Source: an uncultured Gammaproteobacteria bacterium (GTDB lineage: Bacteria > Patescibacteriota > Microgenomatia > UBA10105 > UBA927). From it: 64,000 nt of DNA. The position numbers and the translations under genes are program-made. Shown piece after piece: positions 9,988 to 47,790 of this stretch; the first letter of the stretch is position 1, and each line of letters begins with the position of its first letter. Below the pieces are notes generated by a model. The model was not told the origin of the DNA and searched no databases. It saw only the letters and a list, made by a program, of their open reading frames with translations. The stretch spans positions 183,751 to 247,750 of the forward strand of contig CAYUKU010000001.1 of NCBI GenBank assembly GCA_964445435.1. The letters are read 5' to 3'.

Positions 9988-10674
9988 CTATGTACGGAAA
10001 AATTTTCGTGCTGCCGATTCGGTTATGGGTCTGCCGTCATATACGATGGATCCCTGATTGAGGATAATCATTCGCGAGCACATAGATCCGATTTCTTCGA
10101 GATTTTGGGAGATTAGAAGGGTTGCTTTGTTTTTTGTATTGCGCTTGATGAGATATCGTCGTACACGCTGCGCAAGTGCGGGATCCATATGAGCGGTAAT
10201 TTCATCGAGGAAGAGAATTTTGGGATTATTGAGAAGGGCTTTTGATAAATTGACAAAAGAGTTTTCACCTGACGAAAGCCGGTAAACCTTTTTTTGAAGA
10301 ATGGCATCAGGCATTTGGAGGTCCGTCCAGAGCGTTGTGATAAATGCTTGCCAACGGTCAACTTCGTATAAATCCGCGTACGTTGCGAGATTTTCCCAGA
10401 CACTCGCGTAACCGCTCAAACGTTGACTTGAAGATGCGTAATTCATGCTTCTGGCGATTCTGCGTCTGGCTGTTTCTTCCACGGGTACCCCGAAAAACGA
10501 AAGCGTGCCGGAGTCAGGCGAAAGAAGCCCCGTTGCGATATGGAAAAGTGTGGACTTTCCCGCGCCAACCGGTCCGGTAATCCCGACGATTTCTCCTGCG
10601 CCAACGAAAAGTGATAGATTTGATACAATACGTTTTCCGCCGAGCGTTTTGTCTATGGAAGCAATGGTTAGCAT
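9988..10674 (-). CDS. ABC transporter ATP-binding protein (Wzt/TagH-like, short form without a C-terminal carbohydrate-binding domain).
   Basis: Walker A GPVGAGKST, signature LSSGE, Walker B ILFLDE. Confidence 0.85.
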   Translation of the reverse strand: MLTIASIDKTLGGKRIVSNLSLFVGAGEIVGITGPVGAGKSTLFHIATGLLSPDSGTLSFFGVPVEETARRRIARSMNYASSSQRLSGYASVWENLATYADLYEVDRWQAFITTLWTDLQMPDAILQKKVYRLSSGENSFVNLSKALLNNPKILFLDEITAHMDPALAQRVRRYLIKRNTKNKATLLISQNLEEIGSMCSRMIILNQGSIVYDGRPITESAARKFFRT

Positions 10675-31472: not shown

Positions 31473-32872
31473 CGAGTACTGCTGTTTCGAGAAGACGTTA
31501 TACCGCAGATGATAATATGGATGCAAAGAATGCAGTAGGTTAATGCATGGTACATCACGGGAGTCATCATGCGCTTGAATACAGGGTCAGCCTCATACAC
31601 ATAGAATGCAGTAACAAGTATCTGCGTTGCAGCAATGCTCCCTATGAGAAGTATGCTCATTTGGTTCCACGTGTTGAGCCGAACTGCATACCTTCCTTGA
31701 AAGAGAAGCAACGGAAATAAGCCTAGTGTTATATATTTGATGCTATCAAAGATTCTTTCCAGAATTCGCAGAATTCGTATTGCAGCGTCATGTCCTCCTT
31801 CAGGAATATCTATAGGTGCATGAGAAAATGAGATCTTAGGTATGGCGGCAAGTGACATGAGTGTATAGGGAAATACCTGGTCGGTGAGTATTTTTTTTAC
31901 ATATCGTTGAAGTTCATTCCGTTTTTCAATATCTGAAAAAATATTTCTATCATAAAATTCGATAAATCTGAATACGTAGTCATCACGACTAGCGGTATGA
32001 TATTCGATTAGTTTTCCATGTATTCGAGATTCTTGTGCTCCAGCGTCTAATGAAAGATTAGATTGCATAATGATGCCCAGAAGATTAATATCGCTATAGA
32101 CTGTAATGCCGCGATAACTATGTAATGAGGCATTAAGATACATATAGATCACGGGAATAACGAGAAAAGAGCAAGACAACAGTACTGTCGATTTCCATAT
32201 TTTGATTGAACGATGCATCGCACCCAATAAAATAAACGCCGCAAAAGGGATAAGCAGGAACGCCGGCCGAAGCAGGAAGCCGATAGCAGAAAATCCCCAC
32301 ATCAAAAAAAACGCCTTTCTCGTAGGCTTACGAAACGCATATATGTATGCACAAGTTTGTAAAACGATCCAGCTTGCCGCAACGCCCTCGGTCATAAGAC
32401 GGCGTTCCCATATAGCCACAGGTACATTGCCCGCGCTTAGAGCGCCAATAGCAAACGCGAGCGAAACCGGTATATGGAGTGCCAATAGCGTGTAATACCA
32501 TGCAATTATCGCAGCTAAGCCGAATACTGCCTGAAACAACAGGAGGAGATTCGCGTTTTGGTGAATATCATCAGAATCATGGTTTTTTATTCTGGACTCG
32601 ATGCTAATAAGTGAAGCTGCCAGGACTGGATATACAGGTGTACGGATAGGGTTAATTACATGAGCTAGGGTTGGTTGGGTTATTATGCGTTTTCCAATTT
32701 CGTAATATTCTTGACTGTCCGGCTCAATAGCGATACCGGGTGAGGCAGAGGCAAGAAGTGCTCGTACACCCACCGCTATGATAACGATAACAAGGCCGAG
32801 CGTGTGTTTCGATGTCATAAGCGAAGCACCCGCAGTAAATGCATGGGAGATGTTGCGTATACGCGCAGCCAC
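31469..32872 (-). CDS. Polytopic membrane protein, GT-C-like (candidate lipid-linked-sugar glycosyltransferase).
   Basis: About 11 TM segments. N-terminal loop EPDSQEYYEIGKRI resembles the ArnT/PMT D-E...Y..I.R motif. TGA/ATG overlap with the upstream Glf-like gene. Confidence 0.4.
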   Translation of the reverse strand: MAARIRNISHAFTAGASLMTSKHTLGLVIVIIAVGVRALLASASPGIAIEPDSQEYYEIGKRIITQPTLAHVINPIRTPVYPVLAASLISIESRIKNHDSDDIHQNANLLLLFQAVFGLAAIIAWYYTLLALHIPVSLAFAIGALSAGNVPVAIWERRLMTEGVAASWIVLQTCAYIYAFRKPTRKAFFLMWGFSAIGFLLRPAFLLIPFAAFILLGAMHRSIKIWKSTVLLSCSFLVIPVIYMYLNASLHSYRGITVYSDINLLGIIMQSNLSLDAGAQESRIHGKLIEYHTASRDDYVFRFIEFYDRNIFSDIEKRNELQRYVKKILTDQVFPYTLMSLAAIPKISFSHAPIDIPEGGHDAAIRILRILERIFDSIKYITLGLFPLLLFQGRYAVRLNTWNQMSILLIGSIAATQILVTAFYVYEADPVFKRMMTPVMYHALTYCILCIHIIICGITSSRNSSTR

Positions 32873-33894
32873 AGTAGAATAAATAATGTGATAAACCAGA
32901 GTCCATCTCTATAACCAATAAAAAATGCGAGAGAGACCGGAAGATAAAATAAAATCAAACTACCGGCTATTGGCCGGTAATGTGACAGCGCAAATGTATC
33001 TTGTGTTCGCATGCGAAGATGATGGTAGCCCCATGCGCAAGTCCCCATAATGATAACGAATCCGACGGTAGGTATTTCAGCCACCAAACGTAGCCCAACG
33101 ACTAATAGTCCTGCAAGTTCGACTGGAATAATGTATCGATAAAGTAATAGCTGAGCGGGTTTAATGCCCAGTGACGTTACATAGGTTTTTACGCTGGCTC
33201 GAAGATCGTTTTTATAGTCGTCTATCTGATGAAACATCATTGTCCGGATGCTAAATATTTCCGCCCAAAGCAAAAAAATAAGAAGATCCAAGATGCGTGA
33301 AACGGGTAGCAAAGCGCTAATAGCAACCACCATTGCAACGGGCCTTAGCACGAGGGAACCCACTACAATCCCCCACACGCCTTTCTCTTTGAATCGCAAC
33401 GGCGGTGCAGAATAAAAGAACGCCAGTATATAACCTATAAAGGTGAGTATCATTGGGATTGGTTTTAGTTTTTCTGTACTTACAAAAACGGCGATAATAC
33501 CTATAACGAATGTTAAAAGGAGGACGCCCCTTCTGCCGGATTGTGAAATAAGCCCCCGATGTTTATTTGATCGGCGATCCTGCGTAAAATCAAAGTAGTC
33601 GTTTGCGACAAATAGGAAGGCAAAATAGCACCATACGGATGCAAGTACGAAAAAAAAAGTATGGTACGCGACCATGCCCGTTCCCAATACGTGATCCGTA
33701 TACTGGAGATACAGGATTGGGAGAAACACAAACGGCATGCGAACATGTGCCCAATCATGCCATCGTATGTACGCACCAAAACGTTCGACACGTTCTGACA
33801 GTATCCATGCGAGCATTTTAGGGAGTGGTGTTGCGATATGTGGAGCTGATGGATATTTTTTTCGTTGAGTGGGGACAAGGTGATGCGTGGGCAT
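32815..33894 (-). CDS. UbiA-family membrane prenyltransferase (polyprenyl-phosphate or aromatic prenyl/phosphoribosyl-transferase-like).
   Basis: First Asp-rich motif ANDYFDFTQDRRS (NDxxDxxxD) and second motif HQIDDYKNDLRAS. About 8 TM segments. Confidence 0.7.
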   Translation of the reverse strand: MPTHHLVPTQRKKYPSAPHIATPLPKMLAWILSERVERFGAYIRWHDWAHVRMPFVFLPILYLQYTDHVLGTGMVAYHTFFFVLASVWCYFAFLFVANDYFDFTQDRRSNKHRGLISQSGRRGVLLLTFVIGIIAVFVSTEKLKPIPMILTFIGYILAFFYSAPPLRFKEKGVWGIVVGSLVLRPVAMVVAISALLPVSRILDLLIFLLWAEIFSIRTMMFHQIDDYKNDLRASVKTYVTSLGIKPAQLLLYRYIIPVELAGLLVVGLRLVAEIPTVGFVIIMGTCAWGYHHLRMRTQDTFALSHYRPIAGSLILFYLPVSLAFFIGYRDGLWFITLFILLWLRVYATSPMHLLRVLRL

Positions 33895-33916
33895 GGATGC
33901 TTCTTAGCCTATTCAG

Positions 33917-35056
33917 TTAGGCAGATAAGTGATTTTCCTTCTGCGGGAAGAGGTGTTTAGTGAAGATAGTTTTTGCTGGCATGTGTTTTTTGGCGAGGAA
34001 GAATGTGCAGTATTTCTTGCACGCCGGATAGAAATCCCCTCGCCGCAGCCGTTTCCGGAATGCATGATATTGGGGAGAATGCCAAAATGACTCGACAGCA
34101 CCTTTCTTGACGTTCATTTTTAGATCGAAATCCTCTGATAGTTCAAATCCGAAACCACACGGAAGCACTCTCCCGTTGCTCATGATGTCCATGATGTGTT
34201 GGACGCGATCGCAAAAGTGCGTTTTCCAATATGACGGATCAGGGTTGTCTCTGTTGTAATTCGGGTGATACTGATATATCGGGAGCACATATTGAATATT
34301 GGTTCGCGTGTGAGACTGCTTCATCATGCTCACAACCGAGCGAAGATCATTCATGGCCTGTTTCTGTTCGATGGCATCCAGCGCATATGGGCTAGGCTTG
34401 CGTAGCGATTGATCGTACGGGATAAGTGGATTGTAATAGATATCCGACGCGTTAAATTTCTCCGCAAGCTTAGCGAACGGGATGATTTCGCGATAGTTAG
34501 CTTTCTGAATGACGAAGGAAAATCGAAGTTTGGGGATAACGGTAGCATTTTGCATTTTTTGGATGTTGACGATATTTCCCAATACAAGATCGTAATGATC
34601 TACTCCGTTTACAATCTTATATACGTTTTTCGTCGCGGCGTTTATGGAAATATGCATGCTGTCCCACTTGATTTTTACGAGGAATTTGGCAAACTCTTGT
34701 GTCAATGTGCTGCCATTTGTAATGATATGCCCGTAGAGCCCCTTTTTCTTTATGGTTTCCATGAGGGTCTGAATGCCTCGAAACAGCGTTGGCTCGCCTC
34801 CTCCACAAAGTGATATTTTTTTTACAGAGGAAGGCAAAGTTTTTATCAGCCTGATATAGTCATCAATCTGAAGGTCTGTGGTAAAAGTTGCCTTCGTGAG
34901 ATGTTGTTTGATGGCAGGAGAAAGATTTTCCCTCCAGCACATAGGACAGGCGTGATTACAAATATACCCCATGGGAAATAATCTTACCTCGTCGAGTATT
35001 TCCGGTTCCCTGATTTCGTCAATAATATTGTAAACGGTAGATTTAATGCCAAACAT
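33917..35056 (-). CDS. Radical SAM enzyme with a C-terminal Cys cluster (SPASM/twitch-like).
   Basis: CNHACPMCW CxxxCxxC about 35 aa from the N-terminus, GGGEPTL glycine-rich SAM motif. C-terminal LPCGFGF...YPACKKYC cysteines. Confidence 0.75.
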   Translation of the reverse strand: MFGIKSTVYNIIDEIREPEILDEVRLFPMGYICNHACPMCWRENLSPAIKQHLTKATFTTDLQIDDYIRLIKTLPSSVKKISLCGGGEPTLFRGIQTLMETIKKKGLYGHIITNGSTLTQEFAKFLVKIKWDSMHISINAATKNVYKIVNGVDHYDLVLGNIVNIQKMQNATVIPKLRFSFVIQKANYREIIPFAKLAEKFNASDIYYNPLIPYDQSLRKPSPYALDAIEQKQAMNDLRSVVSMMKQSHTRTNIQYVLPIYQYHPNYNRDNPDPSYWKTHFCDRVQHIMDIMSNGRVLPCGFGFELSEDFDLKMNVKKGAVESFWHSPQYHAFRKRLRRGDFYPACKKYCTFFLAKKHMPAKTIFTKHLFPQKENHLSA

Positions 35057-35111: not shown

Positions 35112-36206
35112 TCAGGGACGATTGTTCCACCGAGAGAGGAACTGGCGATAGAGATTTGTTGCCGAGGATTCGAATACATTTTGATTAGCAGTTCGAAGTG
35201 CGTTTTGTGATAGCCGTTTGTAGGCGGATTTGTGCCTTTTCAAGTATAGTATTTTGCGCGCAGCATCATTTGAACCCTCCACAAGATATCCGTTTTCCCC
35301 GTGTCGGATTAAATGGCCGCTTACGGCGCGCGACCCTATGACGGGTTTTCCCATACCCAGATATTCAAGAAATTTCACAGGAGAGAAGTACATCGGAAGC
35401 GAAAGAAACCGCTTATACATGGCAAGACACACATTCGCATTGCGAACGAGAGCAAGAAATTGTGAATGCGGAACCGCCGACAGATACAAGGTATTTGGTG
35501 ACTGAGACGGCGAGTAATAATGATCGGAACCGACAAAAACAAATAGGATAGTCTTGTCCTCTTTCCATACGAGTTCTGCAGCGCGCGCCATGTCATCGAG
35601 CGCATGCCATGGTAGTCTGGGATCACCGCCCCACAACACGACGAATGCATCTCGTCTGATGAAATTTGCAGACAAGGCTGTAGCATGTTTCTGAGAATTG
35701 AAGGCAATTTCATCTAGAAACAAGAAGTTCGGAATTACTATTGATGCCCGAACGACAAGTGTGCGTTTAATATGTGAAAGCAGTTCCTTAGACACACAAA
35801 TGCATCCATCCACCAGTAGAGAAAGAACCGAACGCTTTAGTGTATTCTTCCAGACGTCAATACGGACAGATAGTTCTCTGGAAAAACTCAGGAGTTCCTG
35901 TGGAATTCCGTGAATTTCCCAGATAACGGGAATACCAGGAACCAAAAGTTTGACGAGGGTATACTTGTCCAATATGCCAGAACCGTCGATGCGGATAATG
36001 ACTTGACGTATTACGTGTCTCTGAGTCCAGACGGTTGCACAAACTTTCATAAGTTCCCTATTGTCGCATTGGATGTGTTTGACCGTGTAGCCGATTGTCT
36101 CAAGCAGACGCTTGCGCCGTTTTGTGTTTATGGAAACGGCATTCTGTCTGTCATCACGCGGGGTAATGTAGACTATGACATCACCATCATGAAATATATT
36201 TCGCAT
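35112..36206 (-). CDS. Glycosyltransferase family 4 (GT-B).
   Basis: FSPVKFLEYLGMGKPVIGSRAVSGHLIRHGENGYLV E-x7-E-type motif. Confidence 0.7.
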   Translation of the reverse strand: MRNIFHDGDVIVYITPRDDRQNAVSINTKRRKRLLETIGYTVKHIQCDNRELMKVCATVWTQRHVIRQVIIRIDGSGILDKYTLVKLLVPGIPVIWEIHGIPQELLSFSRELSVRIDVWKNTLKRSVLSLLVDGCICVSKELLSHIKRTLVVRASIVIPNFLFLDEIAFNSQKHATALSANFIRRDAFVVLWGGDPRLPWHALDDMARAAELVWKEDKTILFVFVGSDHYYSPSQSPNTLYLSAVPHSQFLALVRNANVCLAMYKRFLSLPMYFSPVKFLEYLGMGKPVIGSRAVSGHLIRHGENGYLVEGSNDAARKILYLKRHKSAYKRLSQNALRTANQNVFESSATNLYRQFLSRWNNRP

Positions 36207-36921
36207 AGAGCCTTAAGGCTTCCAGTCCGCCATCATAGACGATAGACCCATCATTCATAATGAGGATACGGTTGCATTGCTGTGAAAGAATTTCATGACT
36301 ATGCGTTGAGACAATAATAGTTTTTGTAGGTCCGAATTGGGTCAGGAGAGTTTGTCTAATCTTGTTCCGAAAATATTTATCTCCCACCAGAAATCCTTCA
36401 TCCAAGATCAGAATCTGCGGGTTTGCGTGAATGGCAACCGAAAAGCCAAGTCTCAATTTCATGCCAGTTGAATACGTAAACAGTGGAGCATCTATGAATT
36501 GGCGAACCTCGGCGTAGTGGATAATTTTTTGGATATCCTGCTTGAGTTGGTTTTTGGGAATCCCCAGGATCATCCCATTGAGGTATATGTTCTGTTCTCC
36601 GGTTAGATCTGAATGAAATCCTGCCTCAAGGTCTATAAGCGTAACGACCTTCCCGTGGGTTATCAATTGTCCTTCCGACTGGGCGCTAATCCCGGATATA
36701 ATTTTCATGAGCGTTGTCTTGCCTGACCCATTTGGCCCAATGATTCCGACCCTGTCGCCCTGCCATATTGTGAGATTAATATTTTTAAGGGCCCAGAATG
36801 TTTCGTTTCTACCCTTAACAAACTTTTCAACGAGGGTAGGCTTCTCGTGGTAGAGTTCATATCGTTTGTTTATGCCGATAAGCTGAATAGAAACCTGTCG
36901 TTTGGTTCGTGTACCTTTCAT
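36187..36921 (-). CDS. ABC transporter ATP-binding protein (Wzt/TagH-like, short form).
   Basis: GPNGSGKTTL Walker A, LSTGMKLRLGFS signature-like, ILILDE Walker B. Confidence 0.85.
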   Translation of the reverse strand: MKGTRTKRQVSIQLIGINKRYELYHEKPTLVEKFVKGRNETFWALKNINLTIWQGDRVGIIGPNGSGKTTLMKIISGISAQSEGQLITHGKVVTLIDLEAGFHSDLTGEQNIYLNGMILGIPKNQLKQDIQKIIHYAEVRQFIDAPLFTYSTGMKLRLGFSVAIHANPQILILDEGFLVGDKYFRNKIRQTLLTQFGPTKTIIVSTHSHEILSQQCNRILIMNDGSIVYDGGLEALRLYAKYIS

Positions 36922-36927
36922 AGGAAT

Positions 36928-37734
36928 TTACACCCAATCGTCGAAATTCTTACTTTCTCGTATGAACACGTAAATTCCAGAAATACAGGTGAGGAAAATA
37001 AGCACCATGTTTGCAAAAAATATTGCCGAACTTGGTGGGGTTGCCCCAAGTGTCCCCCACTGAAGTATCTGGGTTATGGAAACAAGCGGATTGGCCATCC
37101 ACAGCCAGGTAATTTCATCAGGGATTTGAGAAAGTGAATATACTATGGGTGTAGCGTAGAACCATACGATAAGCACTGCTTGTACGAAGAAATTCACATC
37201 CCGGTAGCGGACATTTAAAGCGCTGGTAAGAAGACTTAAGCCGACGGTAAAAATGAGGAGCATGATGAGTCCGAACGGCATAAGGGACGCCGTCATGACC
37301 GTGGTGGTACCAAGAAGAGTCACCGGAATGAGGAATAAGCAAAGCGCAATAGCAAAATGTATGGCGTTCGAGAGGACAATGGAGAGCGGAATGACCGCAG
37401 TGGGAAACGCAGCCTTCTTTATGAGGCTGCGTTCAAAGACAATGGAGGGAGTTGCTTTCGTCAAGGATGTCGAAAAGAAGTTCCACGAGAGAAGGCCAAC
37501 AAATAGATGATAAAAATAATGCTCAATCGGTTCTTTCATGAAGAACGTAAAGATAGATCCGATAACGAGCATTTGCAGGACTGGGTTGATAACCAGCCAC
37601 AGGAATCCAAATATGGTATATTTGTAGCGAGCACGCAGTTCTTTTTCTGTCATGCCCCATAACAGTTCTATGAAGTGGTGTACATCGGACCGCATGGAGG
37701 TATTATACCCTACTCTATAGAGAAGGAGTCGCAA
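36928..37734 (-). CDS. ABC-2 type exporter permease (Wzm/TagG-like).
   Basis: Six-TM profile, 268 aa, immediately upstream of the ATPase on the same strand. Confidence 0.75.
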   Translation of the reverse strand: MRLLLYRVGYNTSMRSDVHHFIELLWGMTEKELRARYKYTIFGFLWLVINPVLQMLVIGSIFTFFMKEPIEHYFYHLFVGLLSWNFFSTSLTKATPSIVFERSLIKKAAFPTAVIPLSIVLSNAIHFAIALCLFLIPVTLLGTTTVMTASLMPFGLIMLLIFTVGLSLLTSALNVRYRDVNFFVQAVLIVWFYATPIVYSLSQIPDEITWLWMANPLVSITQILQWGTLGATPPSSAIFFANMVLIFLTCISGIYVFIRESKNFDDWV

Positions 37735-37745
37735 CTATCTTCACT

Positions 37746-38345
37746 ATGTCTACTTTTGTATACACGTCTTTTATCTGTTTTCTGTTTCTACTTTCGCTGC
37801 CGCTCCAGATCGTCATCGCGTTTCTGCTGGTTGCGACGTCCGGACGACCCGTTCTGTTTATGCAGAGGCGGATCGGAAAAGATGCTAAGCCATTTACGCT
37901 CTATAAGTTCCGGACGATGAAACGGGGCGCGCACAGAGAGCAGCCACAACTGATGCGGCGCAATGAGGCCGACGGCCCTGTGTTTAAAATTCATAACGAT
38001 CCCCGCTTCACGCGGGTAGGTCGCTTTCTGGCGCACACAGGACTCGATGAATTGCCGCAGTTGTACAATGTGCTTCTTGGTGATATGGCCCTGTTTGGCC
38101 CCCGTCCTCTTCCGGTTGCGGAAGCCGCCAGGTTGAAAGGTTGGCAACGGAAACGACACGCTATCAAACCCGGCATTATCTCTCCGTGGATCGTCAACGG
38201 CTACCATGCACAGTCATTTGACGCGTGGATGAAAAGCGATATCGCGTACATTCAGAAAAAGTCGCCATGGCATGATCTTGTGCTGGCTGTCCGGACGATG
38301 AAGCTTCTAGCCCGGCTTCTTCTCAGGGAAGTTGCAAAAACATAG
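37746..38345 (+). CDS. Small bacterial sugar transferase: an initiating polyprenyl-phosphate hexose-1-phosphate transferase (PglC/WbaP C-terminal-domain type).
   Basis: RPVLFMQRRIGKDAKPFTLYKFRTM, DELPQLYNVLLGDMALFGPRPL and PGIISPW blocks are diagnostic of the monotopic PGT family. One N-terminal re-entrant helix. Confidence 0.85.
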   Translation: MSTFVYTSFICFLFLLSLPLQIVIAFLLVATSGRPVLFMQRRIGKDAKPFTLYKFRTMKRGAHREQPQLMRRNEADGPVFKIHNDPRFTRVGRFLAHTGLDELPQLYNVLLGDMALFGPRPLPVAEAARLKGWQRKRHAIKPGIISPWIVNGYHAQSFDAWMKSDIAYIQKKSPWHDLVLAVRTMKLLARLLLREVAKT

Positions 38346-38384
38346 ACTGATAGCGTCTTTCCCGGTACAATACGAATCCTTCCT

Positions 38385-38882
38385 ATGGCAGTTCATCCTG
38401 AACGATCACTGCGAAAGCTTACCGTACCCATGCGGCGGGCAATCCGTACCCATATCCCCCGCGAAACACGGCAAACTCTTGCGAAAGTCGCCCGTATTGC
38501 CCGCACGGGTGTCATATTTGCTTCGGTCGTAACAGCTGCAGGAGCGGCAGCGTATGACTACATTGCACATGCCCGTGGGCAGGACGGATTAACCCAGGGG
38601 TATGCCTGGGGAGCAGTGGCGCGGGATAACTGTATCGAGGCTGCTTGGATCGCGTCGCATCGAGTGGACCCGGATGAATCGGTACGTCTTCATGTGCGTT
38701 CGTATGTTGAAGACGCCTTTCAAGAAGGAGTTGTGGCTGATCTTTCCGGCTTGCCCCTCCAAGCCGGTCACGCGGAGTTTTGCTTTGAAGAAGGCGAGCT
38801 TCCCCGCGCCCGGGTGATTTTCCAGGCGGAAAACGGTGGCGTCAAAGGTCAGGAGCAGCGCTACGAGGTAGAAAATCCGTGA
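38385..38882 (+). CDS. Hypothetical protein with one TM segment, GC-rich.
   Basis: ORF with TM GVIFASVVTAAGAAAY. No motif recognised. Confidence 0.35.
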   Translation: MAVHPERSLRKLTVPMRRAIRTHIPRETRQTLAKVARIARTGVIFASVVTAAGAAAYDYIAHARGQDGLTQGYAWGAVARDNCIEAAWIASHRVDPDESVRLHVRSYVEDAFQEGVVADLSGLPLQAGHAEFCFEEGELPRARVIFQAENGGVKGQEQRYEVENP

Positions 38883-38974
38883 TACATGCCTGTTGACAAG
38901 AGAGAACGAAGAGTGGTACCAATGATATGGTCTGATATTGACAAGCTGTATAGTAGTTGATACTATAGGTTTGT

Positions 38975-40999
38975 ATGCCTGCTTCAGCGGAAACGGAAAC
39001 ACAAGGAGATCAGCCAGCTTCAGAATCGGGACTCGGTGAGCCCCAGATTCTTGACTTCAATACAATACTCAGTGAAGCAGTTTTAGAGCGATTTGAGGAG
39101 CAAGTTCATCGACTCGCCCGCGATCACGGGTATTTCTACGACAAGCCGGATGGCAATCCATATTCCCCTACCCGTATTTACGAAATGACGCAAAAAATAG
39201 GCGTTGGCGCACTTACCTCAAGCGGAAGCGTTGAAGTGATCGTGCCACAATTGGAACTTCGCCACAAACGGAATGCGGACCAGATATTTGCGCCTCAAGC
39301 GATAGCACGGGAGTTCGGAATCAAAGCAACGAGGCTCAAGGCAATTCAAAAATTTCTTGAGGATGGAACACTTTCTCCCCAGGAGGCGTTTAAGCTTGCC
39401 GGTAATCAGGATCCAAAAGCCGCTCTTGAAACCCACCAGGATGAATGGCAGGCGTGGGTAACGAGTACGCGCGAAGTACAGGCGCGGCAACAGCCGGTTG
39501 TGGCAGGTGATCGGGTTTCGGTTGGAGACGTTGAAATTATCATGGACGAGCAGGAAGCGCAAGATCGACCCTCACGCAAACGAGCTTCGCGTCTGTCCCG
39601 CGCGACGGCGCCGATCAGACGCCGGGTTATTCTTGCCGCTGTGGGAGGATTGACCATACTGGGCATGCTTCTGTCTGCCTGTTCGCCAAGGGGCGGCACC
39701 GGGGATATTCCAACGCAGCCACCCTCCTCTACCCCTGCAGGAGAACTGTTTACGCCCGATGCGCCGACAGCCGTTTCAACGGCGACTGTCAAGCCCACGG
39801 AACCGCCGACTCCAGCGCCATTTAGCGGAGCCACGGAAGCTGCTCCCACACAATCTGCCGTGTACGGGCCGCCGAATCTCGAACGTTCCGTCCGTTTGGC
39901 CGGATCCGGCGGAAGTGGGCGTAATGAAATTCTTACCAAAGCGGGTATCGATGAAGCGACGCTCGTTTCGTACGAAAATGCCGCCTACTCGTGGGCCGCG
40001 AATAACGGATATACCAAAAATCAGGTGAATATCGAATATCTCTTTGACGGACAGTCCTGGAATATGGTGCTCCGGGAGGTTTCATCCGGAAACTACATCT
40101 GGTCAGAAGACGGCGAGGGCGCCCTGATGACCTATCCCACCATTATAAGAGTTGACGCCCAGGGGCCGCACGCCGATCCAGAGATGGGAGCAAGAGTGTT
40201 GGAAGGAACAAAAGACGCCAAAGCGATGCTGGTCAACGGATTTGTGGTCGTCGTTCGCGGATCGGTGCAGATCGCCGGGAAAACATACTACACCGAGTGG
40301 TTTAATACGGTCACCGGCGAGTGGCAGCCGATCGCAGAGGTTCAGGCGGCCATCGTAGCCTCAGCGCCGGAATTTACACATGGTCTTGCACCCGATTTTG
40401 AATCGGCGATTGTGGTTAGGGAGTCGGATATTCCCGCCATTATCGCAAGCCTGAGGGCGGGCCCATCGCTGATTGATCCGGGTGCTCAGCCGACGAGATT
40501 TGCGGGCAGGGAGGGGGAATTGTCCGCGACGCCGAACGGATTAACAGAGCAGCTAAATATACCAGTGGGTACAGGTGATCTTGCTAATGTTGCGGTTGCC
40601 GCAACGATAAGAGTTGATTCAATGATGGGAGATTCGCAAGGATCTAAACTTATATTAATTTTGGAGGTAAAAAACGACACTTCCATGGGTCATGAGTCAA
40701 GAGGGTATATTAGGGTATATATAGGGGGTGCGGTTGCTGATCAAACTGTGTTCCCGACTGACGCAGCAACTAAACTTCAGGTAATAAGAAAAACTATAGG
40801 AGATGGCCTTATATGGCAACTTTTGGCCGGAACAAAAAGTTCGTTTTATGATGGTTCGTTCGTCAAGCAATTGTTTAACCAAAAAGGTTCAGTAACCGGC
40901 ACGTCGCTTCGTGATCTGTTGCTAAAGTGGAAAAATGAAGGGGTTGTTCCTTCTGAATTGGAAGACATGCTCATACCAATGTCAGGCGTTGGTTCCTAA
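38975..40999 (+). CDS. Hypothetical 674-aa bitopic surface protein. It has a roughly 215-aa cytoplasmic N-domain, one TM, a Pro/Thr-rich linker and a large extracytoplasmic domain.
   Basis: TM RRVILAAVGGLTILGMLLSAC followed by PTQPPSSTPAGELFTPDAPTAVSTATVKPTEPPTPAP linker. Consistent codon usage over 2 kb. Confidence 0.5.
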   Translation: MPASAETETQGDQPASESGLGEPQILDFNTILSEAVLERFEEQVHRLARDHGYFYDKPDGNPYSPTRIYEMTQKIGVGALTSSGSVEVIVPQLELRHKRNADQIFAPQAIAREFGIKATRLKAIQKFLEDGTLSPQEAFKLAGNQDPKAALETHQDEWQAWVTSTREVQARQQPVVAGDRVSVGDVEIIMDEQEAQDRPSRKRASRLSRATAPIRRRVILAAVGGLTILGMLLSACSPRGGTGDIPTQPPSSTPAGELFTPDAPTAVSTATVKPTEPPTPAPFSGATEAAPTQSAVYGPPNLERSVRLAGSGGSGRNEILTKAGIDEATLVSYENAAYSWAANNGYTKNQVNIEYLFDGQSWNMVLREVSSGNYIWSEDGEGALMTYPTIIRVDAQGPHADPEMGARVLEGTKDAKAMLVNGFVVVVRGSVQIAGKTYYTEWFNTVTGEWQPIAEVQAAIVASAPEFTHGLAPDFESAIVVRESDIPAIIASLRAGPSLIDPGAQPTRFAGREGELSATPNGLTEQLNIPVGTGDLANVAVAATIRVDSMMGDSQGSKLILILEVKNDTSMGHESRGYIRVYIGGAVADQTVFPTDAATKLQVIRKTIGDGLIWQLLAGTKSSFYDGSFVKQLFNQKGSVTGTSLRDLLLKWKNEGVVPSELEDMLIPMSGVGS

Positions 41000-41013
41000 A
41001 GTTATCCCACTTA

Positions 41014-41655
41014 TTGTCATTGACAATATTGTATAATAGTTTTGTGAACCGTAACTGGTGGTTTGTTGGTCTTCTTGTTTCCATAGTTGTGTTATTGCCT
41101 CTCTTAGGCTTATGGTGGTATCGTGGATATTTTTCTTCGGAGTTAGAGCCCGAAAAACTACGATTTCGTATCGATGCTGCCTTTGAAAATGCGTACCGCC
41201 AGAATGATCCTTATGCGATTTGGTTCAATCGGGTGGTATTTAAAAACGGCGATAAATTTGCATGGCGACCACCGCGAATTCTTGCAACTCATATTCCTAC
41301 CACTTATGAAGTTTCCGGATATGAATTTTATGGCGTTGTGACAAGATGGCGTCCGGATGTGAAATTGCTTCATATAAACACCTATATAGGTAAACCCCTG
41401 ACAGTTCGTTTTGATCCAGACTCTGATAGATCCATAGCTATTATTCCTAAGCTTGATGCTTACGGGAAAATTATTGGATCAAACATATTACCAGTTGTCC
41501 AGTCAATGTATGTGCCCGATTGGAATACACTTTTTTGTGAAAGCGACATTGTTTCTATAAAGGTGAGGTCGAAATTTTCGATAATGTTTGGTCGACCTGA
41601 TAATCCACTTATTCCAGTTAATATAGTATTAACGCAACGTCTTTGTCAGGTATGA
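41014..41655 (+). CDS. Hypothetical membrane-anchored protein (N-terminal TM plus beta-rich domain).
   Basis: TM WWFVGLLVSIVVLLPLLGLWWY. Overlaps the next gene by 13 nt in an operonic arrangement. Confidence 0.45.
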   Translation: MSLTILYNSFVNRNWWFVGLLVSIVVLLPLLGLWWYRGYFSSELEPEKLRFRIDAAFENAYRQNDPYAIWFNRVVFKNGDKFAWRPPRILATHIPTTYEVSGYEFYGVVTRWRPDVKLLHINTYIGKPLTVRFDPDSDRSIAIIPKLDAYGKIIGSNILPVVQSMYVPDWNTLFCESDIVSIKVRSKFSIMFGRPDNPLIPVNIVLTQRLCQV

Positions 41656-43229
41656 GACTCTGGACACCATTAATGGCCTTTCTTTTTGTCGTAATTACAT
41701 CTTGGTTTACGCCGGTTTTTGCTCAATATCCTACAACGCCAACACCAACCGGAGCGCCAAAAACGTGTTGTCAGAATTTGGACTGCGGGAGCTGTCCGGG
41801 GGATCCAAACAAAACATACGTTATGTGTCAGACATGCCCATCGTGGTGGAGCTGTGGAGATGGTGATTGTGGTTCTGGAGATAATGGCGGGGGCGGTTGT
41901 TATACAATCACAAATTGTAACGCATGTCATCCAACGAAATGTACGCCAACATGCGGTCTGGGAGGGTGTCCCGGTGGATGCGGAAACGTTGATGATTGTG
42001 GTGGTGTAGACTGCGCGGCCTGTCCAGGCGGCGGAGGTGGAGGCGGCGGTGGTGGAGGATGTGGAGATGGGACATGTGGTGCGGGAGAAACTTGTTCTAG
42101 TTGTCCAAATGATTGCGGCTTATGTCCTTCTGGTAACGCTCGTGCGCGGGGACACATTATTGCCTCAACTGTCACCACATGCGCGCAGGTCAGAGCGAGC
42201 ACCAATTACCTCGCCGAAACCCTTACACTTACGAACGCGTTACCCGCGTCTCAAAACATTTCAGGCGGTACATACGCTCAGTGGAATAATCTCGTGCCGA
42301 ACGCACACACGCTCTCCGACATTCCCCCTGCGGGGTATGTGCTTAAGCTTGCCTGCTGGCAGACGGACACGCCCGCAGCGCAGGGAACCGGCATGACTGC
42401 CGATGTGCCGACCGGCGGGACGCTTACCTGGAATTTGGGATATACCAACGGAACTGCCTGGATGCAGACACGGGGCGGTGATGTGTATGCCGCTATGGGT
42501 TTGTCATCTCCCATTCCCGTAGGGGCAAGTCCACGGTATGGACTTCTTGATGGCGGGAGCGGATTGCCCGGTGTTGCGACGTACGGGGTTTCGTATGATT
42601 TTGACAGTGATACCGGCAGTCTCGGCGAATCATATGTTTCCTCAACCGGCTGGCTTGCAAACGAGACGTACGCCGCCACGGATTTCTACGCACTTATGTA
42701 CCAGCGGTTTGATTCGCCGGCAGCTGATTATTCCGGGCCGACGACATTTACTTCCCAATTGGCAAGCGGGACATACTTCGTCGACGGTGATCTCACTATC
42801 GGCACAAACCCGTGGAATGTAGGAAGCGGGACGAGCATCGTTGTGCTCGTCAACGGCAATCTGACCATTAACCAAACGATTAATCTATCGGGTACCGGAT
42901 TCGTCGCTTTCATCGTCAATGGCAATATCACCGTCAGTCCGAACGTTGGGGTTGTCAACACGTCATCGGCGCCAGCACTGGAGGGAGTCTATATCACCTC
43001 CCCCACCGGCACCTTTACGACGGGCGCTTCCACAACTGCCGGGTCGGAGCGGTTTGTAGGTAGAGGTATTTTTGTCGCGGGAGACTTCAGTCTCACACGG
43101 GATCTGGATAGTTATGGCGTAAACAACACGACGTCTTCCGAGCTGTTTATCTACAATCCCCGGCTCCTTATCACGATGCCGGATGAAATGCGTGATCTTC
43201 CCGTGACCTGGCAGGAAGTCGCTCCGTAA
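41643..43229 (+). CDS. Secreted Cys-rich/Gly-rich protein with a beta-helix-like C-terminal domain, rich in N-x-S/T sequons.
   Basis: Signal peptide MSGMRLWTPLMAFLFVVITSWFTPVFAQ. About 40 Cys in 150 aa including CGDGTCGAGETCSSCPNDCGLCP-type repeats. (Gly)11 run. Repetitive VNGNLTINQTINLSGTGFVAFIVNGNITVSPNVG beta-strand pattern. Many NxT/NxS motifs (NGT, NET, NLT, NQT, NLS, NIT, NTS, NNTT). Confidence 0.55.
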   Translation: MSGMRLWTPLMAFLFVVITSWFTPVFAQYPTTPTPTGAPKTCCQNLDCGSCPGDPNKTYVMCQTCPSWWSCGDGDCGSGDNGGGGCYTITNCNACHPTKCTPTCGLGGCPGGCGNVDDCGGVDCAACPGGGGGGGGGGGCGDGTCGAGETCSSCPNDCGLCPSGNARARGHIIASTVTTCAQVRASTNYLAETLTLTNALPASQNISGGTYAQWNNLVPNAHTLSDIPPAGYVLKLACWQTDTPAAQGTGMTADVPTGGTLTWNLGYTNGTAWMQTRGGDVYAAMGLSSPIPVGASPRYGLLDGGSGLPGVATYGVSYDFDSDTGSLGESYVSSTGWLANETYAATDFYALMYQRFDSPAADYSGPTTFTSQLASGTYFVDGDLTIGTNPWNVGSGTSIVVLVNGNLTINQTINLSGTGFVAFIVNGNITVSPNVGVVNTSSAPALEGVYITSPTGTFTTGASTTAGSERFVGRGIFVAGDFSLTRDLDSYGVNNTTSSELFIYNPRLLITMPDEMRDLPVTWQEVAP

Positions 43230-43247
43230 AGTTGTTATACTCGAAGA

Positions 43248-44561
43248 ATGCGCCGTTTCCTCGTTGATGGTATTCTTTTTGCGGTTGTTCTTATCCTCTC
43301 CATCACAATGCTTGTCCCACAGCTCAAGCGGCATATGTTTTTCATCGATGAATACGAATTCATGCGCAAAAGCTATCTTTTCGATGTGTATTTTCTGAAA
43401 CAGAACCTGGGCGATCCGCGGTGGACCGATGCGGCGCTTGAGTCCGATGCGCCGCAGCCAAAGGTGGGGCCGTATATCTTCGGGCTTGCGCTTCATCTGT
43501 CCGGAGTTCGTGATATCGAAACTGCCTTCAGGCAAAGCGGGTTTTCGACGATTCAGGTCGATGGCCATCCGTGGTGGGAAGCGCTCTGGACGAAGGAGCC
43601 CTCGAAATTTCCCGACTCACTCGCACAGAGCTTCTCGTATATACTCATCGGCCGGCGTGCAGCGGCTGTGTTTAGCATCGCGTCGATACTTTTTGTCTTC
43701 CTTTTGGGTACGACGCTCCATAGCTCCGTATTGGGATTTATCGCGGCAATCCTGTTTCTTGTGAATCCCCTTTTTCGCCTCGAGGCGGGGTTTGCCATGA
43801 CTGATACCATGCAGCTTGCGTTTCTCCTTCTTACCGTTCTTCTTCTTGTATATTGGCGGGGGGCGTGGCAAAAAAAGAGCTATCCCTGGCTTCTGACTCT
43901 CAGTGTCGGCATTGGTCTTGCCGCATCACTCGCCGCGGGCGTAAAAGTGACGGGGATGCTTGCCATGTTGTTTGTGGGTATGCATCAGGTATATACATAC
44001 GCCCGGGAAGAGATGACGGCGGCGCTGAGGCGTATGCTCGTTCTTTCGACGGCAACCATGGTTGTTGTGTTTTGGAGCGTTTTTTATGCACTTCATCCGT
44101 ATATTCATACCGATACGTTCCGACAACTGCGCTACATGTATCAGGCGAGGATGAACGTCTCCCAGACGCTGTATGCGCAAACATATCCACACACGTATAT
44201 TCCCACCAGGACCCAAGCTCTCCGATACGTGCTTATGAGAACCATGTTGCCTTACTCGCTTTATGGGAATTTCTCCCATTCCTGGATTCCGTGGGACATG
44301 ATGCTTGTTGTAGGCGGGAGTTTGGTATTGATAAACGATGTGTTCGCGCGCTGGAAGAAAAGAGGGGCGCTGCCAAGGCTTGCGATTTTGCCGCTATGGA
44401 TTTCCTTTACGGCAGTTTCTCTCGTATGGTATCTCTCCCATGACTGGTCGCGGTACTATCTGCCGGTCGCTTCGGGGATCACGATTCTTGAGGCCTACAT
44501 GATTACGTATCTTTTCTTCCGGTTCGGCGGGGGCGTCCTGTATGATAGACTTCCCAAGTGA
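43248..44561 (+). CDS. GT-C-like polytopic membrane protein (candidate lipid-linked-sugar glycosyltransferase).
   Basis: About 11 TM segments. N-terminal loop FFIDEYEFMRKSYLF D-E motif. Confidence 0.5.
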   Translation: MRRFLVDGILFAVVLILSITMLVPQLKRHMFFIDEYEFMRKSYLFDVYFLKQNLGDPRWTDAALESDAPQPKVGPYIFGLALHLSGVRDIETAFRQSGFSTIQVDGHPWWEALWTKEPSKFPDSLAQSFSYILIGRRAAAVFSIASILFVFLLGTTLHSSVLGFIAAILFLVNPLFRLEAGFAMTDTMQLAFLLLTVLLLVYWRGAWQKKSYPWLLTLSVGIGLAASLAAGVKVTGMLAMLFVGMHQVYTYAREEMTAALRRMLVLSTATMVVVFWSVFYALHPYIHTDTFRQLRYMYQARMNVSQTLYAQTYPHTYIPTRTQALRYVLMRTMLPYSLYGNFSHSWIPWDMMLVVGGSLVLINDVFARWKKRGALPRLAILPLWISFTAVSLVWYLSHDWSRYYLPVASGITILEAYMITYLFFRFGGGVLYDRLPK

Positions 44562-44580: not shown

Positions 44581-44718
44581 ATGGTGAAGCGAGTGTATCA
44601 GCCCAAAAAAGGAAAGCGCGTGCGGACGCACGGATTCCGAACGCGCATGAAGACACATTCCGGCCGCAAAGTCCTCAAAAGACGCCGAGCCACGGGACGA
44701 GGACGCCTCACGGTATAA
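44581..44718 (+). CDS. rpmH: 50S ribosomal protein L34.
   Basis: Translates to [45 protein letters not shown], near-identical to bacterial bL34. Not in the ORF track because it is shorter than 60 aa. Confidence 0.9.
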
Positions 44719-46599: not shown

Positions 46600-47790
46600 T
46601 TGATGCATCGATGGATTTTTTCCCTTCTCATCTTTCTGTTACCCGTGCAGCTTGGATACCATACCTGGCCGTCATGGTCGATGGTTCTCGGAAGAAGAGT
46701 TGACTATCTCTCTCCCACCCTCCATCTTACTGACATACTAATTTTTTTCCTCCTTATTTCTTGGGGTGTCGATGTGCTGAGACATCGAAGGAAGGTCGCG
46801 AAATCGTTCATTTTTGGATTTATCGGGATTGTGATAGCCGCGTTTATAAACGTGCGGCTGGCGGTAAACCCCATGGCAGCCTTCTGCGCATGGGTGAAAG
46901 TGTTGGAATTTGCGTTTCTGGGGTGCTACATATATACGACAAGACCTGAGCGCAGGAGAATACTTTTTCTTCTATCATGGTCAGTTTTATATTCGTCACT
47001 CGTTGCCATCGGGCAATTTCTTCTGCAGAAATCCGTTGGCGGACCGTTGTGGTTGCTGGGGGAAAGAACATTTACCCTCGATACACCCGGAATTGCGCGG
47101 GCGGATTTCGCAGGACGTGAAATATTGCGGGCATACGGGACGTTCCCCCACCCCAATGTTTTGGGCGGATTTCTGGCGATAACACTTCCGATGATTCTGG
47201 GAGGAATTCAAAAGCGAGCCTCGAACATGGGTCGCGAATTTTACGGATTGGTCATGACGCTTGGAGTAATTGCGCTCATACTCACACTCAGCAGAAGCGC
47301 AATCACACTGTTTGCGGTTGTAGTAAGCTGGCAGTTGTGGAAAATGAAAAAAGCGTTTTTTTTCCTCCCACTTCTTATGCTAATTACACTCCCCTATCTT
47401 TGGACGGACGAATCGTTCGTCGTACGAAACCAGTTGAATGATGCAGCCATACAAATGGTTCTTTCGCATCCCGTCTTCGGTGTGGGATTGGGGAATTTTC
47501 TCGTGGAACTTCCCACGTATCTTCCAACTCGAACTATTTACTTCCTGCAGCCGGTTCACAATATCTATCTTCTTCTTTTATCCGAGGTTGGTGCTCTTGG
47601 GGTCATGGGAATTTTCTGGATACTGTGGCGTATACGAAAACATATTGAGTTTTCCGTGGCGCTTGGGACAATTGCCATTCTCGGACTGGTGGATCACTAT
47701 TTCCTCACGCTTCAGCAGGGACAACTGCTTTTGACGATAGTGTTTACGCTCTCCTTGCGCGCGAAGAAGACGAAGGCGCTACAAGTCTAA
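46600..47790 (+). CDS. Wzy_C (O-antigen ligase-like) polytopic membrane protein.
   Basis: LTLSRSAITLFAVV and VHNIYLLLLSEVGALGVMG Wzy_C motifs. About 10 TM segments. Confidence 0.7.
   Translation: MMHRWIFSLLIFLLPVQLGYHTWPSWSMVLGRRVDYLSPTLHLTDILIFFLLISWGVDVLRHRRKVAKSFIFGFIGIVIAAFINVRLAVNPMAAFCAWVKVLEFAFLGCYIYTTRPERRRILFLLSWSVLYSSLVAIGQFLLQKSVGGPLWLLGERTFTLDTPGIARADFAGREILRAYGTFPHPNVLGGFLAITLPMILGGIQKRASNMGREFYGLVMTLGVIALILTLSRSAITLFAVVVSWQLWKMKKAFFFLPLLMLITLPYLWTDESFVVRNQLNDAAIQMVLSHPVFGVGLGNFLVELPTYLPTRTIYFLQPVHNIYLLLLSEVGALGVMGIFWILWRIRKHIEFSVALGTIAILGLVDHYFLTLQQGQLLLTIVFTLSLRAKKTKALQV

Follow-up and report, generated by a model that had tools for sequence, protein, structure and literature searches.

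A conserved secreted protein family with a predicted beta-helix scaffold and a strain-variable cassette at a surface-glycan locus assigned to Candidatus Gottesmanbacteria

Cysteine-rich, strain-variable extracellular proteins of the Candidate Phyla Radiation (CPR, or Patescibacteria) are a general category already described, with a proposed role in attachment (PMC4736985). Here we describe a block of five plus-strand open reading frames (ORF1-ORF5, 38385-44561; 165, 674, 213, 528 and 437 amino acids, aa) in a 64-kb stretch of contig CAYUKU010000001.1 (64,000 nucleotides, called the window below), which, judging from its sequence, comes from a Candidatus Gottesmanbacteria (CPR/Patescibacteria) bacterium; the same strain is also present as Logan contigs from SRR10095373, which were reached with YidC and ORF2, exact look-ups of the 528-aa reading of ORF4 and of database protein P0001 having given no match. 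What is new is the conserved protein family to which the secreted product of ORF4 belongs, its fixed genomic position, its predicted fold and a bounded cassette that is replaced between closely related strains. We tentatively favor the reading, which we hold to be possible rather than probable, that the block specifies a membrane-tethered, probably O-glycosylated surface complex in which a conserved scaffold carries exchangeable exposed parts.

The Peribacteria proteins described earlier resemble ORF4 in their signal peptide, high Cys content, strain variation and setting of heavy investment in surface glycans, and their similarity to Myxococcus repeats was called 'very weak'; however, they average about 1,655 aa and form multi-gene arrays, whereas ORF4 has 525 aa, a beta-helix scaffold and a fixed position (PMC4736985). 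As to gene neighborhood, the surface-layer (S-layer) protein glycosylation (slg) loci of Geobacillus stearothermophilus and Paenibacillus alvei share with our locus a WbaP/WsaP-type initiator, a Wzm/Wzt exporter, a Wzy_C-type transferase, central strain-specific glycosyltransferase (GT) genes with the lowest G+C content and tightly packed, overlapping ORFs, and in some species the gene of the target protein lies near the cluster, as ORF4 does here (PMC2943079). Unlike the target proteins of these loci, ORF4 has no S-layer anchor and bears a Cys-rich head, while the slg loci lack genes for a bitopic partner and for a GT-C enzyme. At the protein level, the helix of ORF4 scores above the gathering threshold of the DUF7305 (PF23981) beta-helix proteins, and for many members of the ORF4 family a DUF7305 match is already precomputed. 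The Gottesmanbacteria proteins nevertheless add a beta-sandwich, a Cys-rich head and a near-invariant W[QE]EVAP terminus, all of which lie outside the Pfam match. A literature search found no paper mentioning DUF7305, a family without assigned function, and nothing on envelope proteins of Gottesmanbacteria. The features of the block are as follows.

38385-38882, plus strand: ORF1, 165 aa, no known domain; basic N-terminus and a weakly hydrophobic segment at aa ~41-57
38975-40999, plus strand: ORF2, 674-aa bitopic protein with a cytoplasmic N-domain, a transmembrane segment (TM) with a lipobox Cys, a P/T stalk, an ectodomain and a variable distal region
41014-41655, plus strand: ORF3, 213-aa signal-anchored protein with one N-terminal TM and a ~180-aa ectodomain
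41643-43229, plus strand: ORF4, secreted protein, in the 528-aa reading; 41652-43229 as 525 aa
41652-41723, plus strand: Sec-type signal peptide of ORF4 (MRLW...PVFA, followed by QYPTT); the VFA/ASA-Q pattern recurs across the family and is not a prepilin leader
41724-42131, plus strand: Cys/Gly-rich head of ORF4, aa 25-160, with 24 Cys and 26% Gly; hypervariable across the family
42027-42059, plus strand: (Gly)11 linker, 11 mixed GGN codons
42060-42125, plus strand: single complete cysteine repeat unit CGDGTCGAGETCSSCPNDCGLC, pattern CGDGxCxxxExCxxCxxDCGxC
42132-43151, plus strand: conserved module, predicted as a beta-sandwich (aa ~161-270) and a beta-helix (aa ~271-500); predicted local distance difference test score (pLDDT) 89-98 in AlphaFold2 (AF2)
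42747-43028, plus strand: Pfam DUF7305 (PF23981) match, E 4.4e-10, 40.2 bits vs a cut-off of 27
43152-43226, plus strand: C-terminal tail ...ELFIYNPRLLITMPDEMRDLPVTWQEVAP-COOH; pLDDT falls to 60-75 over the last ~20 residues
43248-44561, plus strand: ORF5, 437-aa polytopic PMT-like GT-C glycosyltransferase (Pfam PMT)

All five ORFs were found at the coordinates and with the lengths listed in a first-pass annotation of the window, which had been made from the sequence alone. The most likely start codon of ORF4 is the ATG at position 41652, since the resulting protein matches database entry P0001 and the start forms an ATGA overlap with the stop codon of ORF3, a classic sign of translational coupling. 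A 4-nt overlap of the small gene with the start of the ORF4-family gene was also present in loci L006, L010 and L011, and gaps of 1-3 nt were found elsewhere. The protein contains 26 Cys and 15% Gly, and a hydropathy scan revealed an N-terminal hydrophobic signal, in line with the secreted Cys-/Gly-rich product expected from the annotation; the mature form has a mass of 50.9 kDa, a pI of 4.1 and 20% Ser plus Thr. The beta-helix, likewise expected, was recovered when AF2 was run with 56 sequences, pLDDT being mostly above 90 for aa 160-515 and mostly below 50 in the head. The DUF7305 match spans aa 369-462 of the 528-aa reading. Within the family alignments, the polar residues Q272, D277, R483, N491 and E522 are invariant, as are W520, E522 and P525 in alignment A3. 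Searching the model with Foldseek against PDB and BFVD gave no match at E<1e-3, and the ORF4 profile matched no PDB sequence. The weak resemblances obtained, all non-significant, were to CnaB-type immunoglobulin-like (Ig) domains of Gram-positive pilins, to ice-binding-protein/DUF3494 helices (best matches 4nu2, E 0.014, and a viral DUF3494 protein, E 0.045, with TM scores below 0.3) and to ComZ. Two identities were dropped: that of an ice-binding-like (DUF3494) protein, as there was no Pfam match and the fold matches were non-significant, and that of a sortase substrate, as ORF4 ends in ...TWQEVAP without an LPXTG signal or a TM and shows a weak Ig-like fold resemblance only.

In the head, the annotated CGDGxCGxGExCxxCPxDCG repeats proved to be one complete unit and one degenerate copy, so that the motif stands but its plural was overstated. 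The opening of the unit, CG[DN]G...GE.C, is presumably also that of the Myxococcus repeat TIGR02232; the second half (CxxCxxDCGxC) differs, however. NCBIfam repeat models matched neither the ORF4 head nor P0087, P0084, P0005, P0092 and P0083 (relatives bearing 4-8 repeats) at E up to 10, and Pfam cysteine-repeat models, with an E limit of 1, matched neither the head nor the relatives with 7-8 repeats; the suggested assignment to TIGR02232-like repeats was therefore abandoned. The (Gly)11 run was found as annotated, with 11 GGN codons. Since these codons are mixed, the tract is not a slippery homopolymer, and a slippage-prone tract was rejected; Tandem Repeats Finder (TRF) reported a weak 12-15-nt periodicity in this region and nothing more. 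The poly-Gly run is kept in P0002 and P0003.

A search for the ORF4 family yielded 92 proteins, and a pattern scan of one genome per species yielded 37 loci. The informatively named loci are from Gottesmanbacteria or Patescibacteria, three being labelled Chloroflexi or 'bacterium', and some loci bear the placeholder title 'uncultured Gammaproteobacteria'; going by these records, the family appears largely confined to Gottesmanbacteria. Each of the two complete chromosomes retrieved (~1.0-1.1 Mb) has one ORF4-family locus, and no ORF4 paralogue was found in the 64-kb window. Family members share a Sec signal peptide, a hypervariable Cys-rich region (0-8 repeat units, up to about 60 Cys, sometimes other inserts) and a conserved ~365-aa module, and they end in WQEVAP or WEEVAP in 57 of the 92 cases (W-x-EVAP/EVSP in 66). 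One member, P0035, carries a Hint/intein-type domain in its variable Cys-rich head (aa ~91-242; Pfam Hint 1.7e-9, Intein_splicing 1.3e-5). In about 25 Gottesmanbacteria loci, the ORF4-family gene is followed downstream by rpmH-rnpA-yidD-yidC-jag-Wzy_C-Polysacc_synt-RNaseH-DUF4012; most of these loci have a Bac_transf gene with a divergent Wzm/Wzt pair upstream of it, and in roughly 20 Gottesmanbacteria loci it keeps its place between Bac_transf and rpmH. About a dozen loci have, in this order, genes for Bac_transf, a large bitopic protein, an anchored protein of ~200 aa and the ORF4-family protein. In one locus dnaA-/dnaN-like ORFs, recognized by eye from their N-terminal sequence, lie just upstream, which would place the region near the replication origin.

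The five frames are all undisrupted and have orthologues in L006, which carries the genes in the same order; L002/L003 and L008 lack ORF1. Amino acid identity to L006 is 75% for ORF1, 58% for ORF2, 38% for ORF3, 77% for ORF4 and 65% for ORF5, and the nonsynonymous divergence (dN) ranges from 0.18 to 0.69. As the synonymous divergence (dS) to L006 was saturated or not computable, dN and the identities were used alone. Because the frames are intact and dN is far below the saturated dS, the five ORFs are real genes evolving as coding sequence, and a non-gene reading was rejected. Conservation is unequal along the block: the C-terminal module of ORF4 is 86% identical to that of L006, exactly as is YidC, whereas the head reaches 60%, ORF3 38% and the distal region of ORF2 25%. 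Across the clade, the module is better conserved than the Wzy, flippase and DUF4012 proteins. A YidC-like degree of conservation would suit a secreted protein that modifies or assembles a wall glycopolymer, such as a beta-helix glycan lyase, a hydrolase or a chain-length factor, in which case ORF5 would decorate the polymer rather than proteins and the block would serve housekeeping envelope biogenesis. The gene does lie among envelope-biogenesis genes, and in other lineages Mur-ligase-like genes (recognized by sequence motifs) or other genes stand between ORF4 and rpmH; the invariant polar residues of the module could be read in the same sense, and wall glycans or lipid-linked glycans are frequent substrates of GT-C enzymes. 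We nevertheless consider such an enzyme distinctly unlikely: ORF4 matched no Pfam or NCBIfam family of glycoside hydrolases, lyases or esterases, the nearest fold resemblances are non-enzymatic (ice-binding-type helices, pilin Ig domains), and a hypervariable, strain-replaced head would be unexpected on a housekeeping enzyme.

Strain replacement was revealed by comparing the window with L047, a Logan contig from another sample that carries the same locus of a ~95%-identical strain. Nucleotide identity along the alignment was distributed as follows.

38050-40300: 90-100% identity to L047
40300-41950 (vs L047 11368-12952), no strand assigned: strain-variable cassette, replaced beyond recognition; 35-53% identity, which is alignment noise
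41950-42250: 77-78% identity
42250-45250: 86-100% identity, mostly above 90%

The left boundary of the cassette, at ~40300, is sharp, and the right side is graded up to ~42250. Its 1.6 kb cover the distal region of ORF2 (aa ~457-674), all of ORF3, and the signal peptide and first ~95 head residues of ORF4. Between the two strains, neither the ORF2 distal region nor this first part of ORF4 (which is not alignable) gave a blastp match, and the ORF3 proteins are 42% identical. Its products are the parts that should project furthest outward from the membrane, and such a pattern is what diversifying selection on surface parts, or their allelic exchange, leaves behind. Identity to L047 also falls below 80% left of ~37950, that is in the 5' half of the Bac_transf gene, the ABC transporter and the GT island.

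ORF3 is, as annotated, a small TM protein, with one N-terminal TM (aa 15-33); its database entry, P0100, has 203 aa. It is fast-evolving (37% identity to orthologues), and a search of 5.8 billion proteins returned only ORF3 itself. The P/T-stalk architecture proposed for ORF2 was also recovered, since hydropathy analysis shows one TM (aa 218-236) followed by a P/T-rich stretch. The parts of ORF2 that matter here are given below.

39608-39682, plus strand: internal signal-peptide-like TM ending in the lipobox L-S-A-C, aa 212-236 (lipobox aa 233-236; alignment A1)
39683-39820, plus strand: P/T/S/A-rich stalk, aa 237-282, directly after the lipobox Cys; candidate O-glycosylation region
39821-40354, plus strand: conserved ectodomain, aa 283-460, no Pfam model

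The ORF2 ectodomain defines a small family: a word-indexed search found only 7 homologues of ORF2, and the ectodomain profile retrieved only 22 cluster representatives among 1.84 billion proteins, with no Pfam domain in the 10 members scanned. Its mean column identity in alignment A5 is 80%, and its similarity to an 894-aa protein of L002 (67% identity) is restricted to the ectodomain alone. Most representatives are canonical lipoproteins composed of a signal peptide, lipobox, P/T linker and domain. Eight of them (ORF2 and seven others, including P0097, P0102, P0104 and P0107) carry an N-terminal extension of 190-480 aa before the signal peptide; that of ORF2 has ~210 aa and is conserved among close relatives. 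Cys236, an invariant residue, stands in the same alignment column as the lipobox Cys in P0098 and P0099, which are ordinary lipoproteins (MKT...LMAC). The lipobox of ORF2 fits the pattern [LVI][ASTVI][GAS]C, although the signal peptide is not N-terminal, and ORF2 is accordingly best described, from these alignments, as a putative lipoprotein-type protein whose lipobox stands behind a 210-aa cytoplasmic extension. An internal start that would yield a plain lipoprotein had no convincing Shine-Dalgarno sequence. A weak NCBIfam match, the 'lipo-invert C-terminal anchoring domain' (E 0.0076), was below the cut-off. Among those proteins of the window that were scanned, neither Lgt nor LspA turned up.

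In about a dozen of the 20 loci analyzed in detail, the two genes 5' of the ORF4-family gene encode a protein of 500-940 aa, most often with one internal TM, and then an N-terminally anchored protein of ~200-230 aa. These positional analogues of ORF2 and ORF3 split into several sequence groups, between which no similarity was detected by blastp, by jackhmmer started from ORF2 or ORF3, or by hhalign of the small-protein groups. On this evidence, they would either diverge extremely fast or be repeatedly replaced.

The last ORF of the block had been called GT-C-like, and this was confirmed by a Pfam PMT match of 27.4 bits (gathering cut-off 22.7). The ORF5 sequence alone matched no PDB sequence, and a profile of five orthologues matched yeast Pmt2 (6p25_B) with E 2.4e-4; four of the five orthologues match PMT and one matches PMT_2. 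The protein has at least 8 hydrophobic segments and is polytopic. In GT-C/PMT enzymes the catalytic acidic pair is located directly after TM1, and at this position the five orthologues share an invariant F-I-D-E-(Y/H)-E-F motif, the Asp-Glu of which is by analogy probably catalytic. These matches support ORF5 as a PMT/GT39-like GT-C glycosyltransferase. It shares with actinobacterial Pmt (GT39) the Pfam PMT/yeast Pmt2 match and the invariant Asp-Glu after TM1; however, it is short (437 aa) and distant (E about 1e-4 to 1e-6). Actinobacterial Pmt acts on Sec-exported lipoproteins, and a lipobox Cys followed by a Thr/Pro-rich stretch is a typical context of mycobacterial O-mannosylation; ORF2 has this arrangement.

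The proteins of the block suggest the following course of events. ORF4 would be exported by Sec, lose its signal peptide and fold as a beta-sandwich and beta-helix scaffold bearing a disulfide-rich, Gly-linked head. Being anchorless, it would be kept on the outer side of the membrane by two co-encoded proteins, the signal-anchored ORF3, which is presumably coupled to it in translation, and ORF2, a lipoprotein-type partner on a P/T stalk. ORF5, on the model of actinobacterial Pmt, may act on ORF2 and ORF4 while these leave Sec and move a sugar from a polyprenyl-phosphate donor to Ser/Thr within their P/T-rich stretches. Between strains, the distal domain of ORF2, the ectodomain of ORF3 and the beginning of the ORF4 head are exchanged as one 1.6-kb cassette. 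Since the outermost parts are the ones exchanged, the structure is likely an exposed contact or recognition structure, such as one for host-cell attachment or a surface used as phage receptor. The surface cargo for glycosylation that the first-pass annotation had envisaged remains plausible in so far as these proteins have export signals (signal peptide, anchor, lipobox) within a glycan-biosynthesis locus and next to a PMT-like GT-C, which makes them plausible glycosylation substrates.

Several points weigh against a glycosylated surface complex. The binding of ORF2, ORF3 and ORF4 to one another is our inference, and the AF2 model of ORF2, built from 7 sequences, was unusable (mean pLDDT 42). 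Since the ORF2/ORF3 analogues of distant Gottesmanbacteria have no detectable similarity, a conserved interface with the conserved module of ORF4 is hypothetical. ORF5 was found only in the closest four or five lineages and is missing from most genomes with the ORF4 family, so that its glycosylation cannot be essential to the module. As ORF4 has no significant fold match, only its architecture and context suggest an adhesin or surface role. Finally, a single-copy, strongly conserved C-terminal module could equally mean a housekeeping envelope function.

Two distant members of the family bear on the origin of the scaffold. P0085 is 32% identical over the beta-helix half, shares the beta-helix and the tail, and ends in WQETN; its gene lies within a type IV pilus cluster that encodes PilM, three N_methyl pilins, prepilin peptidase, PilC and PilB. 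In the middle of this cluster (L046 1-18274, GCA_003173865.1), P0085 adjoins a LamG-domain protein and several small pilin-like ORFs. The location of P0085 raises the possibility that ORF4 is itself a non-pilin tip protein associated with a type IV pilus, in the style of PilY1/ComZ, whose C-terminal module docks on pilus subunits and whose variable head binds. PilY1 has a variable N-terminal and a conserved C-terminal part, a parallel that ORF4 follows, and like PilY1 and ComZ of Thermus thermophilus it is large and has a beta-solenoid element; the ComZ fold match (6qvi, E 0.054, TM score 0.23) and a Pfam DUF2572 match are weak and, like every other fold match, the former is non-significant. 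We regard a pilus-tip role as very unlikely, however, since no pilus genes were found in the Pfam-scanned parts of the window (all but 26.7-27.7 kb) and none were noted in the 21-kb Gottesmanbacteria loci. Furthermore, ORF3, its positional analogues and ORF4 lack the G/FTLIE prepilin leader that the true pilins of L046 have, and ORF4 bears a Sec signal peptide instead. From the P0085 relationship, the beta-helix module may still have a pilus-associated ancestry. The second distant member, P0084, overlaps a small upstream gene, has a PMT_2 gene 4 kb away and is accompanied by a tandem paralogue, which shows that the family is not always single-copy outside Gottesmanbacteria; this paralogue lies directly downstream (L045 9503-10579) and has 358 aa, one CGDGSC...CELDCGVC unit and a ...MIRQEV terminus.

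A more far-reaching version of the surface complex, which we offer as speculation and judge quite unlikely in its entirety, treats the cassette as an exchangeable specificity unit: three outward-facing parts, namely ORF3, the head of ORF4 and the distal domain of ORF2, would interact physically and be swapped jointly through recombination, thereby re-targeting the scaffold to another host-cell surface or evading phage; the scaffold would have come from type IV pilus-associated beta-helix proteins and would now be an origin-proximal core gene; and cleavage at the ORF2-type lipobox would split the 190-480-aa cytoplasmic domain off into a second functional piece.

The neighborhood of the block bears on glycan transfer. 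Its framing features and one promoter-like site are these.

37746-38345, plus strand: Bac_transf phosphoglycosyl transferase, the initiating enzyme (Pfam Bac_transf 3.4e-50)
38938-38966, plus strand: promoter-like site TTGACA-17-TACTAT with an extended -10 TG, a consensus match only, ending 8 nt before the ORF2 ATG
44581-44718, plus strand: rpmH (L34), the right frame of the block, followed by rnpA, yidD, yidC and jag
46600-47790, plus strand: Wzy_C-domain membrane protein of the O-antigen ligase/O-oligosaccharyltransferase type (Pfam Wzy_C 1.1e-8, 35.4 bits vs a cut-off of 31.7)

A Wzm/Wzt-type ABC transporter and the phosphoglycosyl transferase lie directly upstream of the block (Pfam ABC2_membrane, ABC_tran, Bac_transf); the latter gene is its conserved left frame, although its 5' half is already strain-variable. 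On the right, the block does stand just upstream of rpmH, as annotated, but it does not end the cluster, because the Wzy_C protein (syntenic in most loci), a Polysacc_synt flippase and a DUF4012 protein come after the rpmH-jag genes. This arrangement would allow ORF4 to be an S-layer or surface-coat glycoprotein and the substrate of the large glycan locus, as in the Geobacillus/Paenibacillus slg clusters: Bac_transf would start the glycan, the variable GTs build it, Wzm/Wzt export it and the Wzy_C protein at 46600-47790 transfer it onto ORF4. The enzyme classes are indeed those of the slg clusters, with an initiator of the PHPT type (polyisoprenyl-phosphate hexose-1-phosphate transferase) in the first place and Wzm/Wzt, central low-GC strain-specific GTs and Wzy_C besides (PMC2943079). 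Moreover, the C-terminal module of ORF4 is acidic and Ser/Thr-rich, with only 2 Cys and 10 N-x-S/T sequons, and the gene is core to the clade, with the one locus per complete chromosome mentioned above. We hold this to be unlikely all the same, given that Pfam and NCBIfam revealed no S-layer anchoring domain in ORF4, be it SLH, CWB2 or another known type, that a Cys-rich head is atypical for S-layer proteins and that nothing points to self-assembly of ORF4. In addition, ORF4 belongs to a tight co-directional array, whereas S-layer genes have been described as monocistronic (PMC2943079).

The promoter-like site at 38938 was the best of 10, the total being no more than the shuffled expectation, and the scan of the region for promoters and terminators as a whole gave counts at chance level; from its position 8 nt before the ORF2 ATG, a transcript starting there would be leaderless or nearly so. 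ORF1, which precedes it, has an L006 orthologue about 75-76% identical (dN 0.18, dS about 2.1) and conserved from residue 4 on, which supports the long start. There was no counterpart of ORF1 in L002 and no tblastn match in L008 or more distant loci, and it appears restricted to the closest relatives.

The GC content of the block had suggested a further explanation, namely separate acquisition of the entire block as a surface-structure operon of high GC. Total GC and GC at third codon positions (GC3) were therefore compared across the window.

GT island, 18-37.7 kb: GC 0.448, GC3 0.449
Block, ORF1-5: GC 0.517, GC3 0.506
Block without ORF3: GC 0.532, GC3 0.529
Left flank: GC 0.489, GC3 0.522
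Right flank: GC 0.503, GC3 0.542

GC is not uniform across the region, and the annotated excess over the GT region holds for ORF1, ORF2, ORF4 and ORF5 (0.516-0.572 vs 0.448 in the preceding 20 kb) but fails for ORF3, which, with GC 0.389 and GC3 0.318, is the lowest gene in the window. The step is real, though caused by the low GC of the preceding GT island, and it marks the end of a low-GC variable glycan island, not the start of a foreign high-GC operon. The GC3 of the block is that of the flanking housekeeping genes; its excess resides in codon positions 1+2 (0.534 vs 0.47-0.48 in the flanks), because the encoded proteins are rich in Gly, Ala, Pro and Arg. The ORF4-family gene is likewise GC-richer than its surroundings in every relative examined, regardless of genome GC. 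In other surface-glycan loci, too, G+C is lowest in the strain-specific genes at the center (PMC2943079). The content of the GT island differs completely among relatives (sulfotransferase and APS kinase in L002, GT2/GT4 in L006, radical-SAM and UbiA enzymes in the window). With GC3 equal to that of the flanks and synteny conserved across the clade, separate acquisition of the whole block is unsupported; the fixed position in ~20 loci, a C-terminal module as conserved as YidC and the limitation of replacement to the internal 1.6-kb cassette and the GT island contradict it as well, so that we regard it as highly improbable. The block is instead a lineage-specific envelope module of Candidatus Gottesmanbacteria. 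The odd composition of ORF3 follows from its location inside the exchangeable cassette. The analogous small anchored-protein gene is markedly AT-rich also in several other lineages (L011, L026, L037), not in L002 or L008; repeated replacement may account for this and is the only explanation that we offer.

The rest of the window contains further genes of note. At the left end of the glycan locus, a 936-aa protein (575-3385, plus strand) with PQQ/BamB-type beta-propeller repeats and DUF5060 is a candidate exported protein. It is followed by a 336-aa protein (3388-4398, plus strand) with a Pfam RGP match of 7.6e-48 (reversibly glycosylated polypeptide, UDP-arabinopyranose mutase family); this family is mainly known from plants and here lies within a glycan locus, adjoining a Wzy_C protein. 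The window encodes three separate Wzy_C membrane proteins (4406-6379, 10445-12037 and 46600-47790) and two ABC-2 exporter systems (9203-9982 and 36187-37734), a gene content that suggests several distinct surface glycoconjugates. A strain-specific part of the GT island (30054-35056; L005 1080-6082) encodes an amine-oxidase-type flavoprotein, a UbiA prenyltransferase, a radical-SAM/SPASM enzyme and a 449-aa protein without a recorded Pfam match, a combination unusual for a glycan cluster.

If the function of the ORF4 family were ordinary envelope housekeeping, the finding would shrink to the annotation of a lineage-specific DUF family, and the corrected view of the GC step would still address a common misreading, in which the edge of a low-GC island is taken for a foreign operon. 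Few CPR/Patescibacteria, almost none, have been cultured, and how they attach to their hosts is largely unknown. A clade-wide family at a fixed position, with a modelled conserved scaffold and a region of sharp limits in which near-identical strains differ, is a concrete candidate for what gives Gottesmanbacteria their specificity in host contact or as targets of phage receptor binding, and it provides defined targets for metaproteomics, glycoproteomics and cryo-electron tomography.

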